NCBI GenBank assembly: GCA_050012755.1
Contig: JBEKGO010000020.1
Span: 1 to 46,587, forward strand
DNA length: 46,587 nt
From: Candidatus Bathyarchaeia archaeon
GTDB lineage: Archaea > Thermoproteota > Bathyarchaeia > Bathyarchaeales > Bathycorpusculaceae
Direction of reading: 5' to 3'
The position numbers and the translations under genes were made by a program. Below, one piece after another: positions 6,588 to 15,380 of the stretch; the first letter of the stretch is position 1, and every line of letters starts with the position of its first letter. A model generated the notes under the pieces. That model was not told where the DNA came from. It saw only the letters and a list, made by a program, of their open reading frames with translations, and made no database searches.

Positions 6588-7385
6588 TTGAATGAACTTA
6601 TCTTCGTAGGCTTAGGATTAAACGATGAAAAAGGCATCAGCATCAAAGGATTAGATGAGACCAAGAGTGCAGACAGCGTTTTCATGGAGCTCTACACCAG
6701 CCTCATGCCTGACTTTAGCATGCAACGTTTCGAATCCTTGTGCGGCAAAAAAATCACATTAGTTTCTAGACGTGAATTAGAAGAAGAAAATGGATCGGCA
6801 ATTCTTGAAGCCGCCAAGAAAGGCAAAGTAGTGTTTCTTGTTTCAGGTGACCCTTTTATTGCCACAACTCATGTTACTTTGCGGGTTGACGCGGAGAAGC
6901 AGGGAATCAAAACCAAAATTATCCATGGCACATCAATAATTTCAGCCATAGTCAGCTTGTCGGGACTGCACAACTATAAATTTGGAAAAACAGTCACCAT
7001 ACCTTTTCCCGAAAATTTTTCTGAAACACCCTACAATGTTATTGCTCAAAACAAGAATTTTGGTTTGCATACACTTTGCCTTTTAGATTTGAAAGCCAAC
7101 GAAAAACATTTTTTGAGCATCAACCAAGCCATCGCAATGTTACTTGAAGTAGAAAAGAAGAAAAAGCAAGGCATCGCCACCCCGGACACGCCTGCAGTTG
7201 GTATAGCACGGGCAGGAAGCGACAACCCAACTCTGAAAGCGGGTTTTCTCAAAGATTTAGCCATCTATGATTTTGGTGAGCCGCCTTTTAGCTTGATTTT
7301 TCCCGGTGAGATGCATTTTATGGAAGTTGATTCCTTGATTGCTTTTGCTGGTGCACCGGCGGAGTTTAGGAGGTTTACCAAATGA
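6588..7385 (+). CDS. dph5: diphthine synthase
   Basis: FVGLGL, ELYTS, GDPFIATTH, GLHNYKFGKTVT, GLHTLCLLD and HFME motifs. Confidence 0.95.
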   Translation: MNELIFVGLGLNDEKGISIKGLDETKSADSVFMELYTSLMPDFSMQRFESLCGKKITLVSRRELEEENGSAILEAAKKGKVVFLVSGDPFIATTHVTLRVDAEKQGIKTKIIHGTSIISAIVSLSGLHNYKFGKTVTIPFPENFSETPYNVIAQNKNFGLHTLCLLDLKANEKHFLSINQAIAMLLEVEKKKKQGIATPDTPAVGIARAGSDNPTLKAGFLKDLAIYDFGEPPFSLIFPGEMHFMEVDSLIAFAGAPAEFRRFTK

Positions 7386-9537: not shown

Positions 9538-9884
9538 ATGAGGGCGAGAAACAGCAGCATGAACGTTTTTAACGAGATGGGCAAATACTGGGCAGAGATA
9601 GCTGACCAAAACTCAACGGATTGTCAAGTAAAATTCGTAAAAAGCACACTAAAGCCAGATGGGCTTGTCTTGGACCTTGCATGTGGCACTGGAAGGCACA
9701 TAATTCCTCTAAGCAAGGAAGGGTACAACATGGTCGGTTTGGATGTGTCATCAAATCTTCTGAGAATAGCGAAGAAACAAGAAGGAGATGTTCAACTGAT
9801 CAAGGCGGATATGCGGTTTTTGCCCTTCGCGGCTGAAGCATTTTCGGCTGCGGTTAGCATGGACACGAGTTTTGGATACTTGCC
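9538..9884 (+). pseudogene. class I SAM methyltransferase, 5' part, interrupted by the integrated element
   Basis: VLDLACGTGRH, GLDVS and ADMRFLPF motifs; the protein ends ...MDTSFGYLP at the att core, then stops 7 codons into the element. Confidence 0.9.
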
Positions 9885-9934
9885 TTACACATCAATCCAA
9901 TCTTAGATTCTTCTTCTGAAATTTTTTCAGTCAT
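9854..9934 (-). pseudogene. int(N): N-terminal fragment of the split integrase
   Basis: ATG at 9934 with upstream GAAGGT SD-like motif; MTEKISEEESKIGLMCKASIQN runs through the att core in the same frame as int(C) on the circle; stops at 9854 in the integrated state. Confidence 0.75.
9867..9884 (+). repeat. attL core GAGTTTTGGATACTTGCC
   Basis: Identical to 14891-14908; the flanking bases differ on both sides. Confidence 0.95.
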
Positions 9935-10068
9935 TGTTTTACCTTCTTGAAGTATTGTTCTAATGCTTGGTTGATTATTTTTGACATGTCGCCTTTGTAT
10001 CTGTTTTGTTCTCTTAGTTTTTTTTCGTTTTCTGGGGTTATGGTGAATGTTAATTTTTTGTTTTCCAT
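9931..10068 (-). CDS. ribbon-helix-helix (CopG-like) regulator, 45 aa
   Basis: Read manually: MENKKLTFTITPENEKKLREQNRYKGDMSKIINQALEQYFKKVKQ*; alternating beta strand followed by a S.II..AL..Y helix; SD GAAGGT; ATGA overlap with int(N). Confidence 0.78.
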   Translation of the reverse strand: MENKKLTFTITPENEKKLREQNRYKGDMSKIINQALEQYFKKVKQ

Positions 10069-10092
10069 TTTGGTTTTACCTTCATTTATTAA

Positions 10093-10129
10093 AGGTATAA
10101 TGTAATAGTGGTATATATGTATTATACCT
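10093..10129. promoter_or_regulatory. putative promoter/operator of the RHH-int operon
   Basis: 9-bp inverted repeat AGGTATAAT / ATTATACCT with a 19-bp spacer containing TATATA (10112-10117). Confidence 0.55.
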
Positions 10130-10451
10130 CTATGTAAGATTTTTTTTTAATTGTTTCTGCTGATTGATGCTTTGCTTCGATTGGCTTTGCGTGGGGTGTT
10201 GCCTGTCTTGGTATGGCTTAGGGCATTTGTTTGAGTTGCTTAGCTTTGCGGTTTTTGCAGTTCTACGTTTACGCTTCTGCCATGCTTTCCTTTGCGCTTG
10301 TTTGTCTTTGCGGTGGGTTCGTGGCTGGTTTTTTTAGGGTTGCCCTTTTGTTATTTTATTTTTATTGTTTTTTTGTTAGGTCGGTGTCGTTGTTGTGTTC
10401 TTTCTTTATCGGTTCGACACACAAGGCACCCCTCTTCACGGAAGGTACGGT

Positions 10452-10504
10452 AGGGAACCCTTAGATGATGGGCTCGCTCGAGCCCTGATCTGACGCGGTT
10501 CCCT
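10452..10504. other. GC-rich nested hairpin, candidate replication origin
   Basis: AGGGAACC/GGTTCCCT outer stem, AGAT/ATCT middle stem and GGGCTCG/CGAGCCC inner stem in a noncoding AT-rich region. Confidence 0.55.
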
Positions 10505-10895
10505 GTTTATTCTTTTCTTCTACCCTATTTTTTGTTTTTGTTGGCTGTGCGCATCGGTTTTGGTGAGAACGGCTTTGCGTATCGGCTATCTTGAATTATA
10601 AGATTGCTTTATTTATGTTGTATTACATGTGATTGATTTAGTTGTTTGTGGTTTTTCTGCCGTGTTGATGTATATCAAGCTTTATTACTAGCGATTGCTT
10701 GTTAGGTTAGTGTGAGTATCTTGATAGCTTTCAGTAAGGTAAGTTTAAAATTTGGCTGTCGGAAAGGTACTTGTTATGGTTTGATTTTGTCTTCGCTTTT
10801 TTGGAAGAGTTTAGGTAGTAGTTTTTTGGGTAAGTTGGTTGTTAAGTCGATATTTGTCCGTAGTCTTTGTGGAATACGATTGACGGGTTTGTTGG

Positions 10896-11156
10896 GTGTC
10901 CGTTGGTTCGGGTTCTGTGAGGGCTATGGATATGGAGAAAAATCCTAAGCTTTTTAGTTTTTCTAAGGATGATGCTCGTTCTGTTGTTGGGAATCCTATA
11001 GTTGATAGGTGTCGATATCAGTCACGGAGACCGTGTTTCCATAATGGTCACTGTTCTATTTTTCGGTGTGAGACTTGTTGTGTTGAAGTTTGTTTTTTGC
11101 ATTTGAATCCTTCAGGTTGGTTTCAGAGAAGGAAGTTTAGAGAGGTTGTTTTTTAA
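10896..11156 (+). CDS. small Cys/His-rich element protein (probable start ATG about 10926)
   Basis: CRYQSRRPCFHNGHC...CETCC.EVC..H. Confidence 0.55.
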   Translation: MSVGSGSVRAMDMEKNPKLFSFSKDDARSVVGNPIVDRCRYQSRRPCFHNGHCSIFRCETCCVEVCFLHLNPSGWFQRRKFREVVF

Positions 11157-11340
11157 TGGTTGCTTTTGCTGTTTTTTTGTGTTCCCCTTTTGTTGAGGTT
11201 GTTGCTTTGATGGTTAGCAGTGGCTTTAATCAAAGGCAAACGGTGACTTAGTTGGTTTCTTATATTAGTTTTTCTAATCAGTTCAGTTTTTGTGTTGTAC
11301 GTACCTCTATGTTAGGGTGTTTCTGTAGCATTTTGTCGGT

Positions 11341-12828
11341 TTGTGCTTTGGGAATATTCAACATAGGGGTACGGTGTTTTCACCTATGATTTTGTTTTTT
11401 GCTTTTTTAGCGGTTATGTTTATTGTTTGCTTAATAGTGTTCTGGCTGGCTGTTTTTAATTGGTTTGATAGTCCTTTCTATTCGGATGATTCATTGGGTT
11501 GTCGTTTAGGCGGTGGCTTTTGGTCTTTATATACTAAGATTTTTATTTCTGGTTTTAGGGTATATAAAGCTCTTCGATTTTGTTTTCGAGTGTTTTTGCC
11601 TTTTGGCGGTTTTGGTATTGTAGGCGATAGTGTTGCTTCTGTTGCTAAAAAACGTGTTGTCCATTTTAAAGATGGTACTTTTAAGGAGTACTCGTCTGCT
11701 ACGAAGGAGCAGTTAGATTTTGCTCGGTTGGCTTTTCATGGTGCTGATACGTTGATTGATGATTTTGGTGAGAAAACTGTTTTGGGTTATTTAGGGGGGT
11801 TTGTTGCTCCTGTTATGGATATTAGTCCTACGTTTTTTAGGGATTTGGATTGTAATGGGCATGTTTTTGAAGTTGTTGGGCATGGTATGCCGTTGAATGG
11901 TGATTGTGATGGTTATGTTATGACTAAGGGGTGTTCAAAGGTTGAGCTCCATAAGGAACATGTCGGTTTAGGTTTTTTTCATAAGATACATCATCATTGT
12001 TTTAATTGGCGTTGCCCGAAATGTTTTTTCTATGGAAATGCGGTTCGCTCGGCTCAGCATATTGCTCAGAGGTTAGATAAGAAGTCTAAGGAAACTGGGT
12101 TAGCTGTGGAAGCTGGCATGGTCTCAGTTCCTCCTGTTTTTTATGGCTTGTCCGAGACTGATATGAGAGCTAAGTGTATTGATGCTCTTTTTGCTCGTGG
12201 CTTGTTAGGTTTTGTTTTGGTGTTTCATCCTCTTGCGTATAAATCTTCGCGTTGGGTTGATGGTGTTTTTCATTTGTCGAAATTCTACTATAATCCGCAT
12301 TATCATTGGCTTGGTTTTTTTAAGGAATCTTACGAAGTTTGTCGGAATTGTGAGCATTATAATGAGTGGGGTTCTAAATCTGTTAAGGGGAAAACGAATT
12401 ATAATAATCATGGTGGTTCTGCCTGTTTGAGTTGTGAGCATTTTGAAGGTTTGTCGCGTAGGTTACGTGAGAAGGATAATTTTTTGGTTAAGGTGTTCAG
12501 TAAACGAGATGATAATCTTTCCGTTTTTCGTACTTGTCTTTACGAATTATCGCATTGTGGATTTGAATCGAATACTAAGCATGTTCATATTGTTACTTGG
12601 GTTGGGAATTGTAGTTCACGTCGTTTTAAATCTGGTTATCAGTCGCAACAGATGTTGTGTCCTGAGGTTGAGTGTAAATCTCCTTTGGTTCGTCATGTTT
12701 ATAGTGGTACTAAGTATGAGATTGTGAAGTTTCGGGATTCGCCTGATTATAAGATGGATGATTGGCTTCCTGTAACCGAGGATGGTAAGGTTGTTTGGTC
12801 TGAGGTTGGTGTTATTAGCGGTGAATAG
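11341..12828 (+). CDS. probable HUH-superfamily rolling-circle replication initiator (possible true start GTG 11590)
   Basis: Zn-binding C..WRCPKC; VFHP (12223-12231); PHYHWLG HUH motif (12298-12306); YELSH putative catalytic Tyr (12541-12555); C-terminal CPxxxC. Confidence 0.72.
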   Translation: MCFGNIQHRGTVFSPMILFFAFLAVMFIVCLIVFWLAVFNWFDSPFYSDDSLGCRLGGGFWSLYTKIFISGFRVYKALRFCFRVFLPFGGFGIVGDSVASVAKKRVVHFKDGTFKEYSSATKEQLDFARLAFHGADTLIDDFGEKTVLGYLGGFVAPVMDISPTFFRDLDCNGHVFEVVGHGMPLNGDCDGYVMTKGCSKVELHKEHVGLGFFHKIHHHCFNWRCPKCFFYGNAVRSAQHIAQRLDKKSKETGLAVEAGMVSVPPVFYGLSETDMRAKCIDALFARGLLGFVLVFHPLAYKSSRWVDGVFHLSKFYYNPHYHWLGFFKESYEVCRNCEHYNEWGSKSVKGKTNYNNHGGSACLSCEHFEGLSRRLREKDNFLVKVFSKRDDNLSVFRTCLYELSHCGFESNTKHVHIVTWVGNCSSRRFKSGYQSQQMLCPEVECKSPLVRHVYSGTKYEIVKFRDSPDYKMDDWLPVTEDGKVVWSEVGVISGE

Positions 12829-12922
12829 TTTGTTTTTTCGACATATTATTTTCCCTTTTTTTTATTTTCCGTTAGGTATTTCTATTGGTAGCTTTGTTGT
12901 GTTAGGTGGTGATTATGGATGA
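12821..12922 (+). CDS. tiny hydrophobic peptide (33 aa)
   Basis: GTG start overlaps the Rep stop and its TGA overlaps the ATG of the next gene (ATGA); MNSLFFRHIIFPFFYFPLGISIGSFVVLGGDYG. Confidence 0.4.
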   Translation: MNSLFFRHIIFPFFYFPLGISIGSFVVLGGDYG

Positions 12923-13431
12923 TACCTTCTAAGGTTTCTAAATCTGTTAAAGGGATTTGCGTTAGCTGTGGTTGTTCTTTGACTGGGAAAAATCGAGATT
13001 TAGCTTTTTGTTTGTGTGAAAATTGTTCTAAGACTAAAGAGGTTGTTCTTGGTCTTGGTTGTTCTACCGTTATCGTTAAAGGTACTTGTGTTGGATGTGG
13101 CTGTGTTTTAACTGGTATGAATAGGTCTTTTGATTCTCATATGTGCAAAAATTGTTTTATGGTTGAATCGGCTGATATTGAGGCTGAAGATAAGGCTGAG
13201 GATTCGTCGTTTTTGGACACGGAAAATTTTGCGAAGTTTCTTGGTTGTGGTTTTTATGAGGCTCAAGACCTTATGGGTGAATTCGTTAAGTATTCGTTGG
13301 TTAAGGTTGAAGAGCGTTTGTCTGTGTTTTTTAAGTGTTCGGTGATTGAAGTTAGAGAGCGTTTGTCTGTATTTTTCAAGTGTCCATTAGATAAGGTTGA
13401 AGAATGTTTGGCTGTGTTTCTTGGTCGCTGA
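12919..13431 (+). CDS. tandem zinc-finger protein with C-terminal helical repeats
   Basis: Two VKGxCVxCGCxLTGxNR...CxNC repeats; (K/E)VxERLSVFFKC repeated; SD GGTGGTGA upstream. Confidence 0.7.
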   Translation: MIPSKVSKSVKGICVSCGCSLTGKNRDLAFCLCENCSKTKEVVLGLGCSTVIVKGTCVGCGCVLTGMNRSFDSHMCKNCFMVESADIEAEDKAEDSSFLDTENFAKFLGCGFYEAQDLMGEFVKYSLVKVEERLSVFFKCSVIEVRERLSVFFKCPLDKVEECLAVFLGR

Positions 13432-13757
13432 GTTTTTTTAGGATTGGTTTTCTTTCCTTTCTTTTTTTATGCTTTTGCATGGTGTTGTTTTACTGCTTTG
13501 GTAGTGGTTTGTAGTTTTCATTTTTTGTGTTTATGTTAAAAGTGTTCTTGTAGATTTTGTTTTATGTTTTGTTCTGCTTGTTGTGTTGTTTGGTTATGTG
13601 TTAAGTTAGGGTTTTTCTCTTGGTGCTCTCTTTTGTTTTCAGTGTGCGAATATTCTTCGAGGGAGCACCGCAACAGAGTGAGGAGCGCACCGAGTTTGTT
13701 TGCGGTCTGGTGGATAAGAGAGCTTTGGGTGATTTGACATTGTTGTGTGTGTTGTTT

Positions 13758-13919
13758 TTATTTTTTGTTTTTCTTTCTTTCGCGTGTTATTTTTGGTATG
13801 TCTTTTGGGTCTATTATTTCCATTATGTATTCAGGTTTTCCGTTTTGGTTGAAGCGTATTATTAGTTCTTCTATTTTTGGTTCGTGTATTTTTTTCCATA
13901 TTTTTTCTTCTTTCTTCAT
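13758..13919 (-). CDS. small basic element protein (53 aa)
   Basis: Read manually: MKKEEKIWKKIHEPKIEELIIRFNQNGKPEYIMEIIDPKDIPKITRERKKNKK*; GGAG upstream; directly downstream of int. Confidence 0.5.
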   Translation of the reverse strand: MKKEEKIWKKIHEPKIEELIIRFNQNGKPEYIMEIIDPKDIPKITRERKKNKK

Positions 13920-13968
13920 ATCTTTTTTCTCCTGTTTGTCATTTGTTGTTTTTTGGTAGTTTTGGTTT

Positions 13969-14908
13969 CTATTTTCGTTTTTTGTATGCTTTTATTGTTT
14001 CTCCGTTGAATGTAAGTTCGGTGTTAATGAATCCTTGTTCTATGAGGTTTATTGCTTCTTCTTTAGTTGATGCAATTTTAACTGTCCATTCTTCTTCGTT
14101 ATTGGTTTGTGGCATTCCGCTTAGGTAGTGCATTGTTGTTTCAAGTTTTTTGTGTCTTAGGTGTGCTTTTACTGCTAATGGGTCTAATAGTTTGTAGTAG
14201 AGTTGTCCGCCTGAGTAGTTTCTAAGGTTTTTTAGTGGTATTTTCTTTAGGTCGGGTTGGCTGTATTTTTGTATAGCTCTTTCTCGTGTTTCTCCCCAAA
14301 CTTGTCCCATTATTGCTGATTTTGGGAATGGGTATTCTTCTGTGTGTTTGGATAGGTATTTTCTTAGCATTTCTACTGTTTGGTTTGTTAGTTTGTATGT
14401 TCCTGAGAGGTGTCCTTTGTGTCCTTGTATGCTGATAATGCCTTGCTGTTGGTCTATTAGGTTTCTTGGTGTGCATTCTAATTCGTGTGGTTCTGCTCCT
14501 ATTTCGGCTAAGATTGTGAATATGCAACAGTATTTTTCGGTTGCTGAATTGATGATTTTTGTTACGTTGTCTTTTGTGGGCATTAGTGGTATTTTGCGTT
14601 CAAATTTGTAGAATGGTTTTTTCCATTGAATGGTGTTTAAGGTACAGAAATAATCGTAGGCGTATGCTAAGCTGTTTTTTGTTTCTCCTGATGTTTCTTT
14701 GCCTTTTTTGGTTTTTAGGTTTGCGATAAAGTTTTTGACTGTTTCGGGGTTCATTAGGTTGGTATATTTGCTTATGAGTTTTAGTGAATAGCTAACTCGT
14801 TTTATTGTGTTATCTGCTTTACCGTCGTTTTTTAATTGGATTAAAGTTTTGACGATTAGGCATGTATCCGTATTGGTTTGGCGTGTACTTGAGTTTTGGA
14901 TACTTGCC
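13969..14908 (-). CDS. int(C): tyrosine recombinase/integrase, C-terminal fragment (first in-frame ATG at 14754)
   Basis: IGAEPHEL, GHKG, KNLRN and LRH...TTMHY motifs; the frame stays open upstream of 14754 through attR (LKNDGKADNTIKRVSYSL core-binding-like helix). Confidence 0.88.
14891..14908 (+). repeat. attR core GAGTTTTGGATACTTGCC
   Basis: Identical to 9867-9884. Confidence 0.95.
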
Positions 14909-15380
14909 CAATGAGCACGATGATGTGCAATGCCTAAGAGCTCTTCGAGAGGTGCTTAAGGACGATGGGATGTTGATTGTTGATGTCTTTAACCGCGAAC
15001 GTCTAATCTCAAAATACCAAACAAATTGGCTAAGGCAGCTTAAGTGGGCTCTCTTACCAATTATGTTTAGGGCTAATCGCTTTGGCGCATGGTTGGTTTT
15101 CCATTTTTTCAAGTGGAAAGAGTACCCTAGCTTTTTTCTTCTGCAGAAACGAACAGTCGAGGCTAATGGTGCGCGACTTCATGATTTATGGGTAATTTGC
15201 AACAAAGAGGATGGGCGGATCAGGGTTTTTGAACATAATGCACGTTTGTACGAACTTAAGCGGTTGCAGGTGTTACTTGAGCAGGCAGGTTTCACCGTCA
15301 AAGCAATTTACGGTGATTATAACCAGCAAAGTCTTAGCCCCAGTTCTAGTCGACTTATTTTGGTAGCCAATTCAGAATGA
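14891..15380 (+). pseudogene. class I SAM methyltransferase, 3' part
   Basis: SFGYLPNEHDDVQCLRALREVLKDDGMLIVDVFN...RLY...LLEQAGF...YGDY; in frame with the 5' part after excision. Confidence 0.9.

Follow-up and report, generated by a model that had tools for sequence, protein, structure and literature searches.

The closest described systems to the one reported here are SNJ1, a 16.5-kb, capsid-forming haloarchaeal virus (family Simuloviridae) with double-stranded DNA (dsDNA) that is episomal in its host, and pC194, a bacterial plasmid that does not integrate. RepA of SNJ1 is described as an initiator of the HUH (His-hydrophobic-His) superfamily, on which the rolling-circle replication of SNJ1 depends (PMC12642351). 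Homologues of this RepA are known from plasmids of euryarchaea, and one has been reported in NitAQ6f-E2, an integrated element of a thaumarchaeon (PMC6563490). Here, we describe a 5,024-bp integrated element and its gene rep, for a putative replication initiator (Rep), in a stretch of 46,587 nucleotides from a Candidatus Bathyarchaeia archaeon (the window; contig JBEKGO010000020.1 of assembly GCA_050012755.1). Bathyarchaeia are among the most abundant archaea of sediments and peat, and our literature searches gave no report of rolling-circle or HUH elements from them. A survey of the Bathyarchaeia virome lists dsDNA viruses only and does not mention "rolling" or "HUH" (PMC10541130).

We propose that Rep is a single-tyrosine HUH endonuclease that initiates rolling-circle replication of the element, which would be integrative and plasmid-like. 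We put the probability of this reading at about 85%. The coordinates of the element, its genes, and the motifs of Rep are in Table 1. Related loci are designated by L numbers and the genomes of some of them by G numbers.

Conservation, homology, and predicted structure of Rep

A word-indexed search found 17 close homologues of Rep, counting the window's own protein; they lack Pfam domains, and each is either without a name or listed as "hypothetical". When 1.84 billion cluster representatives (clustered at 50% identity) were searched with a profile, 671 matched at E ≤ 1e-3, including 389 at E ≤ 1e-10 and 128 at E ≤ 1e-30. Most members of the family have around 350 amino acids. We aligned 125 of the 150 listed members, choosing the longer ones, with the core of the window's Rep as the first row. 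H296, H320, H322, Y401, and H405 are present in all 125 members, and Y401 is the single invariant tyrosine. Between the two HUH histidines, at least 117 members have F, W, Y, I, or V. In the zinc module, C198, C220, and C225 are also invariant, C189 is present in 124 members, and H204 and C228 are present in 123 each. The cysteines of the inserted module (C334, C337, and C365 in 123 members each, C362 in 116) and the C-terminal pair (C440 in 122 and C445 in 120) are shared as well. Because these motifs are conserved across 125 homologues, they are not due to chance. Based on the alignment and on a structural model, we propose that H296 forms a metal site with H320 and H322 and that Y401, with H405, acts as the nucleophile. 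Zinc binding is the probable role of the Cys/His module at the N-terminus and of the cysteine pairs in the insertion and at the C-terminus, together with help in positioning the DNA.

We compared this family to the initiators of three reference genomes: SNJ1, pC194, and phiX174. For SNJ1 RepA, we built a family profile from its 32 homologues. In that family, the residues equivalent to those of our family are the conserved ones: every member has H155, H156, H196, H251, and H253, and conservation is 90% or higher at Y305, L307, S308, and H309. hhalign aligned the two family profiles over 197 columns with a probability of 98.5% and E = 1.7e-15. The alignment joins the zinc module, motif 1, the FH motif, the HUH motif, and YxLSH, and it places H320 and H322 on the PHVH or PHFH of the SNJ1 RepA family. 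When our family profile was compared to the single sequence of SNJ1 RepA instead, the probability was 82.7% (E = 9.5e-6, 154 columns), with motif 3 included (VVYALSHC against LYELSHC). The homology spans the catalytic region, and both proteins have the same set of motifs in the same order: a zinc module ending in CPxC, motif 1 as (E/H)HxxxSxP, (F/Y)H, PHxH, and YxLSH. Both are also from archaea. However, the identity over the aligned columns is just 17% or so, and none of the 32 relatives of SNJ1 RepA, which came from a near-length search, were among the proteins found with the window's Rep. Furthermore, our family has an additional CxxC...CxxC module right after the HUH strand, as well as the C-terminal cysteine pair, and both are gapped in the alignment.

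Our family profile also aligned to RepA of pC194 (78%, E = 1.8e-5, 123 columns). This alignment joins CxxxxCPxC, motif 1, and (N/S)PH(F/Y)H, with H320 and H322 of the window's Rep on the PHFH of the pC194 protein, but the motif-3 region is unaligned. Pairwise BLASTP between the window's Rep and pC194 RepA gave E = 0.007 with the same motifs, and with the full-length pC194 Rep, hhalign aligned the zinc module alone. A homologue search that was seeded with pC194 Rep returned only near-identical proteins. The window's Rep has no Pfam match at E ≤ 1, so it does not belong to Rep_1 (PF01446) as defined there. Still, the alignments indicate that it is distantly related to Rep_1, and in both cases Rep is the main gene of a small replicon. 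Protein A of phiX174 did not match our family profile (hhalign probability 0.3%); pC194 Rep and phiX174 A both have PF23343. Judging by these sequence comparisons, the window's Rep is very probably a distant homologue of SNJ1 RepA and of the pC194 Rep_1 initiators, and works like them.

We ruled out another archaeal family, Rep-Arvir (DUF7845, PF25227), because PF25227 does not match the window's Rep or any of the 125 aligned members, and because the structural matches are to HUH proteins. Rep-Arvir, described in 2026, is found on integrating elements with tyrosine integrases (PMC13107129). It is reported to have a fold like that of TATA-binding protein, related to Rep_trans, with acidic metal ligands and no HUH motif (PMC13107129), whereas the window's Rep has the invariant HxH.

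In a predicted structure of the full-length protein, the mean confidence (predicted local distance difference test, pLDDT) is 69, and the N-terminal 140 residues are disordered. In a search of the Protein Data Bank (PDB), this model drew mainly helical matches to its poorly predicted N-terminus, so we refolded the core (amino acids 150–495) with the 125-sequence alignment. The core model has a pLDDT of 90.5 and a predicted template modeling score of 0.87. In this model, H320-Y-H322 lies six to eight residues into the strand at core residues 165–178, so that the conserved His-hydrophobic-His is on a central beta strand, as in HUH Reps. H296 is five residues before the end of the strand at core residues 139–152, which is the partner of the H320/H322 strand. 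Y401, the putative nucleophile, is at the end of a helix (core residues 243–254), 79 residues after H322; the catalytic tyrosine of the Rep class is likewise in a helix that follows the HUH motif. These positions along the strands and the helix of the model are as expected for a three-ligand metal site that faces a tyrosine.

We aligned the core model exhaustively to 48,161 representatives of the PDB. The top match was ORF119 of Sulfolobus islandicus rod-shaped virus 1 (2x3g), which we take to be an HUH Rep (Z = 5.5, with 108 of 116 residues aligned). It was followed by two entries for vientovirus Reps (Z = 5.0 and 4.6), and then by the nuclease of M-Rep of faba bean necrotic yellows virus (4.4), RepB of pMV158 (4.3), the Helitron transposase (4.3), and Rep of adeno-associated virus 5 (4.2). 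A second structural search gave the same picture and added the Rep of wheat dwarf virus. The only statistically significant structural matches of the core were to the BFVD library of predicted structures of viral proteins: Foldseek found four at E ≤ 1e-3 (best E = 3.2e-5, probability 1.00). These four are unnamed. Just four of the 50 viral models in the results bear names; three are microvirus "replication initiator proteins" and one is an "ORF2/G2P domain" protein. In the ESM Atlas, the nearest clusters are unnamed and mostly archaeal, with Candidatus Bathyarchaeota and Methanobacteriota as the most common phyla. Further down are clusters with Rep_1 on 17% and 64% of their members and one with Zn_Tnp_IS91 on 15%.

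A preliminary description of this DNA, which was made from the letters alone, had read the gene as a replication initiator with an HUH motif. We found the open reading frame (ORF) and each of the motifs that it named, in the order that it gave. The invariance of the HxH and YxxxH residues, the homology to SNJ1 RepA (which it had offered as an analogue, and which turns out to be a true distant homologue), and the structural matches to HUH proteins support that reading. As for the HUH fold itself, the best matches are HUH endonucleases, but the scores are weak.

The N-terminus of Rep needs separate treatment. It has a hydrophobic, transmembrane-like extension of about 100 codons, which the Reps of L003 and L004 lack. 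Compared to the related locus L002, this part of the gene (11341–11650) differs largely at third codon positions, so the stretch appears to be translated in the subfamily. Rep may be either membrane-anchored or translated from a more downstream start. The conserved stretch that overlaps the start of rep is 90% identical to L003 across 121 nucleotides, which is above the identity of the coding regions.

The large and so far unannotated family of 671 representatives gains a proposed function, and a link to initiators that have been studied experimentally.

The integrated element, its strand bias, and a proposed replication cycle

The element is flanked by 31-nt direct repeats. The right copy is 84% identical to the left copy, and within them is an 18-nt core that is identical at both ends, with a spacing of 5,024 bp. 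The element interrupts a gene for a methyltransferase that depends on S-adenosylmethionine. Residues 4–116 of the N-terminal part of this protein align to residues 13–125 of an intact orthologue of 282 amino acids, and residues 11–170 of the C-terminal part align to residues 120–280; the two parts overlap by the six residues that the core encodes (SFGYLP). The gene is uninterrupted, with 282–304 amino acids, in three congeneric genomes. Near the right end, the element encodes a putative integrase. This protein matches XerA_Arch of NCBIfam (E = 1.6e-15, 57 bits versus a cutoff of 220 bits), Phage_integrase of Pfam (E = 1.5e-5, 25.2 bits versus a cutoff of 27.1), and the integrase family phrog_1 (E = 1.2e-6); all of its matches are under the curated cutoffs. 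Homologues are found in the same position in L003, L004, L009, and L011. End repeats, a recombinase gene, and a target that is uninterrupted in relatives are the features of an integrase-mediated element.

We did not recognize any capsid, coat, or packaging gene in the element or in its relatives (scans with Pfam, PHROGs, and NCBIfam). Unlike SNJ1, then, the element is just 5 kb, integrates, and has no recognizable virion genes. It is very probably a minimal integrative rolling-circle replicon. The preliminary description had pictured a circular replicon of about 5 kb: the size was right, but with the 18-bp core at both ends and the integrase-like gene, the element in the window is integrated and is not a free circle. 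Its guess that the host belongs to the Bathyarchaeia fits the data: the only match in a named genome is to a metagenome-assembled genome (MAG) of "Candidatus Bathyarchaeota".

Table 1. Positions of the integrated element, its genes, the motifs of Rep, and the candidate regulatory sites
Feature	Nucleotides	Strand	Amino acids	Description
Methyltransferase, N-terminal part	9538–9906	+		Host gene; Pfam Methyltransf_25, E = 8.2e-15; ends with 6 codons from the element and then a stop
attL	9867–9884	+		18-bp exact core, GAGTTTTGGATACTTGCC; wider repeat at 9854–9884
Integrated element	9885–14908			5,024 bp, counting one copy of the core
Left end of element	starts at 9885			TTACACATCAATCCAA
RHH-like ORF	9931–10068	-		45 amino acids; ribbon-helix-helix family RHH_3 of Pfam, E = 0.0075, under cutoff; 71% identical ORF in L003
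78-aa ORF	10712–10948	+		78 amino acids; blastp matches in L003 and L005
86-aa ORF	10896–11156	+		86 amino acids, Cys/His-rich; overlaps 78-aa ORF; blastp matches in L004 and L005
Upstream conserved stretch	11257–11379	+		Contains TTCTTATATTAG; overlaps start of rep; candidate promoter
rep	11341–12828	+	1–495	495 amino acids counted from the first TTG; start codon provisional
Hydrophobic extension of Rep			1–~100	
N-domain of the subfamily			~105–185	
Zinc module			C189, C198, H204, C220, C225, C228	Predicted Zn site
HHHCFNWRCPKC motif	11989–12024	+	217–228	Part of the zinc module
Motif 1			256–265	VEAGMVSVPP
FH motif			294–297	VFHP
HUH-containing motif	12292–12315	+	318–325	NPHYHWLG
HUH codons	12298–12306	+	320–322	H320-Y321-H322
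Inserted CxxC...CxxC module			334–337, 362–365	CRNC and CLSC
LYELSHC			400–406	
Motif 3	12541–12555	+	401–405	Y401-E-L-S-H405
C-terminal cysteine pair			440–445	C440 and C445, in CPEVEC
170-aa ORF	12919–13431	+		170 amino acids; two CxxC...CxxC units; homologues downstream of Rep in L004, L005, L009, and L012
Conserved non-coding block	13539–13562	+		24 nt, AAAGTGTTCTTGTAGATTTTGTTT; candidate double-strand origin or nick region
Structured element	13625–13723	+		Outer stem of GCTCTCTT (13625–13632) and AAGAGAGC (13716–13723), with inner hairpins; candidate single-strand origin
Integrase	13969–14754	-		Tyrosine-recombinase-like; 261 amino acids, intact; start is 137 nt from attR
Methyltransferase, C-terminal part	14862–15380	+		Same host gene; first ~16 codons from element or core
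attR	14891–14908	+		Right copy of the 18-bp core; wider repeat at 14878–14908

The composition of the element differs sharply from that of its surroundings. The element is 17.8% A, 12.5% C, 24.7% G, and 45.0% T, while the rest of the window is 29.7% A, 20.9% C, 20.9% G, and 28.6% T. In a composition profile, the region from about 10,000 to 15,000 is an island with GC skew of +0.28 to +0.39 and AT skew of -0.30 to -0.51. At the third codon positions of rep, the frequencies are 0.59 for T, 0.25 for G, 0.11 for A, and 0.06 for C, or 0.84 for G+T. In the integrase gene, which is on the opposite strand, the frequencies are exactly complementary (A 0.60, C 0.29, G 0.05, T 0.07). So, the bias goes with the DNA strand, irrespective of transcription or coding. 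The GC and AT skews of the element (0.33 and -0.43) are far stronger than those of pC194 (0.14 and 0.05) or phiX174 (0.04 and -0.13), and SNJ1 does not have a comparable skew either. The bias is common to the whole of the metagenome contigs L003, L004, L005, and L009. Among 12 genomic copies of rep, third-position G+T is at least 0.78 in eight; two copies with stop codons have 0.36 and 0.68.

In DNA that is exposed as a single strand, C and A can be deaminated and G can be oxidized, and such a strand would lose C and A and gain T and G. The biased strand of the element is the Rep-sense strand, which is the one that a rolling-circle initiator would nick and displace. Repeated exposure as single-stranded DNA (ssDNA) would account for the G+T-richness of the plus strand, and the bias suggests that this strand spends much of its time single-stranded. 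Similarly, the preference of ssDNA phages for codons ending in T has been ascribed to C-to-T pressure (PMC3278643). A strand bias that is independent of gene orientation would also be a simple signature for finding similar elements elsewhere.

Downstream of rep, we found candidates for both of the origins that a rolling-circle replicon would use. The first is a conserved non-coding block of 24 nt. It has no mismatches in L004, L005, or L038, two in L003, and four in L007, even though the Reps of these loci are only about 50–80% identical. Within the block, CTTGTAGA bears some resemblance to the CTTG/ATA nick sequence that is annotated at the origin of phiX174. A sequence of this type is also found upstream of the rep gene of pC194, and presumably pC194 is nicked there. 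In elements like the window's, however, the CTTGATA of pC194 and phiX174 is not conserved, and the conserved block has CTTGTAGA instead. An equally simple reading is that the block is an archaeal promoter. We rejected an exact CTTGATA on the plus strand (10720–10726), where the 78-aa ORF begins, as an origin: related elements do not conserve it at the matching place, and other occurrences are inside the coding sequence of rep.

The second candidate is a structured element of about 100 nt that begins about 60 nt downstream of the block and is closed by an 8-bp outer stem. Across five elements, RNAalifold predicted 25 pairs, eight of them with compensatory changes. Folded as ssDNA, the sequence has an energy of -17.2 kcal/mol (z = -2.62), and 2 of 200 shuffled sequences were as stable. 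The structured element is not conserved as protein, since the reading frames differ between elements, and Rfam had no family for it. We put about even odds on the block being the double-strand origin and the structured element being the single-strand origin. In all four metagenome runs that we analyzed, the contig depth at 13680–13913 was 3–8 times that of neighboring bins, with loose ends at 13606–13726; given this depth, other elements in these communities probably share the ~100-nt module.

We propose the following cycle. The integrase-like recombinase would excise the element between the 18-bp cores as a double-stranded circle. Rep would then bind the origin on the circle, for which the conserved block is the best candidate. 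A divalent metal at H320 and H322, and probably also at H296 on the neighboring strand, would polarize the scissile phosphate, as suggested by the invariance of these residues, the model, and the homology to SNJ1 RepA. On the same grounds, Y401 would attack and form a covalent link with the 5' end of the plus (Rep-sense) strand. H405, which is one helical turn past Y401, may assist. If the family's mechanism holds, a host polymerase would extend the 3'-OH and displace the old plus strand as ssDNA, and Rep would re-ligate the displaced strand into a circle. The structured element could then prime synthesis of the complementary strand.

A module of about 5 kb that replicates and integrates itself, with a mapped core and candidate origins, is the usual start for a shuttle vector, and this lineage has no genetic tools. 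More tentatively, and we consider this doubtful, the elements of 3–7 kb with Rep and integrase might be a group of bathyarchaeal replicons, so far unrecognized, in which the plus strand is mostly present as ssDNA that is packaged, exported, or long-lived. If so, they would be the first ssDNA mobilome, possibly viral, for Bathyarchaeia, replicated by a zinc-rich branch of the SNJ1 RepA/Rep_1 initiators, and their ssDNA state would drive an asymmetry (84% G+T at third positions) comparable to that of vertebrate mitochondrial DNA.

Evidence against the proposal, and alternative explanations

Several of our results weigh against Rep as an active rolling-circle initiator. The structural matches to PDB entries have Z of at most 5.5, which is in the range where two proteins may merely share a common arrangement, and ribosomal protein S6 and ACT domains are close behind. 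Because the scores are low and these ferredoxin-like proteins follow closely, the evidence from the fold is supportive only. Foldseek found no match to the PDB at E ≤ 1e-3 with either model, and comparing the single protein or the family profile to PDB sequences gave nothing meaningful. There is no curated family for Rep in Pfam, PHROGs, or NCBIfam. Scanning the 125 aligned members did not identify a consistent family from these databases either; one member touches Rep_1, with E = 0.0037. We found no relative in the 2.9 million viral contigs that we searched, and tblastn gave no match in 50,697 phage and 72,556 plasmid records. The conserved block did not form a hairpin or other fold in a folding test. 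Two intact copies of rep have little skew (third-position G+T of 0.49 and 0.59). And the window's Rep departs from its family at two positions: the motif-1 histidine (116 of 125 members) is Ala258, and the arginine after the FH motif (115 of 125) is Ala299. Judging from the alignment, these substitutions could alter its activity.

We also did not find the circle. The preliminary description led us to expect circular contigs of about 5 kb with homologues of Rep, but 0 of 11 related loci have terminal overlaps. In contigs from four peat or wetland metagenome runs, we saw the integrated form, with both junctions bridged in three runs (X2, X3, and X5) and attR alone in the fourth (X4). None of the sequencing runs listed as containing this DNA was of RNA. 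No circle junction was seen in these contigs, although rare circles would still be possible. In one run, there was a weak joint from 9827 to 14971 with a 24-letter side; it may be the empty site of a related strain, and we did not count it as evidence.

Could the element be the provirus of a small ssDNA virus, or a replicon that exports or packages its plus strand? Rep would still be an HUH initiator, with a packaged single-stranded genome as its product. The strand bias is far above that of pC194 and even that of phiX174, and an excess of T at third positions has been described as characteristic of ssDNA phages (PMC3278643). Also, the best significant structural matches are from the viral library, where the named proteins are initiators of Microviridae (phiX174 gpA/VP4; PF05840, PF23343) or, in one case, the ORF2/G2P-domain protein. 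However, no capsid, coat, or packaging gene was recognized in the element: besides Rep and the integrase, it has small zinc-finger-like, RHH-like, and unassignable ORFs. The module that is conserved in relatives is a small zinc-finger protein, Rep, and an integrase, all in 3–5 kb. In T-rich DNA, chance alone is expected to give hydrophobic ORFs, and the only apparently conserved one overlaps the structured element, which is conserved at the DNA level with differing frames. The absence of relatives from the viral contigs also seems inconsistent with a virus. We consider this explanation unlikely.

Another explanation, which we think rather improbable, is that the window's Rep is a decaying or functionally altered copy in a resident element that is no longer mobile. 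This would explain Ala258 and Ala299, the stops or splits in several copies from related genomes, and why we did not see a circle junction. On the other hand, the rep ORF, the integrase gene, and both copies of the core are intact. At the motif-1 position, 16 of the 17 close homologues have alanine or valine and otherwise evolve as proteins, so Ala258 is a trait of the subfamily and not a lesion. The third-position G+T of the window's rep (0.84) is like that of intact copies and not like the stop-bearing ones. And the contigs show presence only, so circles that are rare could be missed.

We also considered that Rep might be a rolling-circle transposase like those of IS91, so that the element would transpose instead of replicating as an episome. 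An N-terminal zinc-binding module combined with an HUH domain is consistent with this, as is the cluster in the ESM Atlas with Zn_Tnp_IS91. Similarly, pC194 Rep itself matches Zn_Tnp_IS91 weakly, and SNJ1 RepA is reportedly homologous to IS91 transposases (Wang et al. 2018). But the IS91 domains, including Zn_Tnp_IS91 (PF14319), do not match Rep at E ≤ 1 or any of the 125 members at E ≤ 0.01, and Rep has just one invariant tyrosine. Members of the IS91 family are multi-copy insertion sequences without an integrase or direct target repeats, while rep has a single copy in the source genome; its element has an integrase-like gene and is bounded by an 18-bp direct repeat, and relatives have a clean empty site. 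Furthermore, related elements share their end sequence beside a similar short core in different genes, which is typical of site-specific recombination. An IS91-like transposase is therefore very improbable.

Finally, a conjugative or mobilization relaxase is extremely improbable: the triad of H296 with H320xH322 resembles the three-histidine metal site of HUH relaxases, but relaxases have their catalytic tyrosine N-terminal to the HUH motif whereas the invariant tyrosine of Rep is C-terminal, the homology and structural matches are all to replication initiators or the Helitron transposase, and there are no transfer genes among the ORFs of the element.

Related elements and the other genes

We found relatives in one named genome record (the MAG mentioned above) and in ten metagenome contigs. 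We sampled 301 genomes of the class and found matches in 11 of them, one being the window's own genome. The distribution is patchy: the matching genomes belong to two families of a single order (7 of 48 genomes in one, 3 of 12 in the other), and the other families that were sampled gave no match. Some integrated copies of the family are decaying, with in-frame stops or split rep genes at L013 (genome G086), L021 and L031 (G190), L023, L028, and L032 (G229), and L027 (G094).

In L003 and L004, the element end is that of the window, TTACACATCAATCCAA, and it comes after ATAC(T/C)TGCC. In L004 (positions 1–580), the element is in a different methyltransferase-like gene, where the site encodes ...ALEYLP, with the ATACTTGCC core and the element end as in the window. 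Because L004 shares the core and the end in another gene, the core that the integrase recognizes may be very short and may occur repeatedly in genes of this kind.

The 45-aa RHH-like protein of the element is a possible regulator of copy number or transcription. In the predicted layout of the circular form, the attachment site would separate its gene from the integrase gene, with its gene on the upstream side. The 78-aa and 86-aa ORFs did not match any family in Pfam, and the 170-aa protein did not match any in Pfam, PHROGs, or NCBIfam. Within the gene for the 170-aa protein, three 45-nt tandem repeats (13257–13422, 71–72% identical) encode a ...ERLSVFFKC... unit that makes up the C-terminus.

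Some relatives have a shorter type of Rep, with about 340 amino acids. These elements have a minimal module of three genes in 3–5 kb: Rep is preceded by a small, conserved Cys-rich protein (...CSYRK...GRCFKC...) and is followed by an integrase on the opposite strand. The Cys-rich ORFs are at 6909–7271 in L036, 7016–7288 in L037, 3242–3472 in L040, and 6685–7221 in L042. G+T-richness that follows the strand was also observed in L036, L037, L038, and L040.

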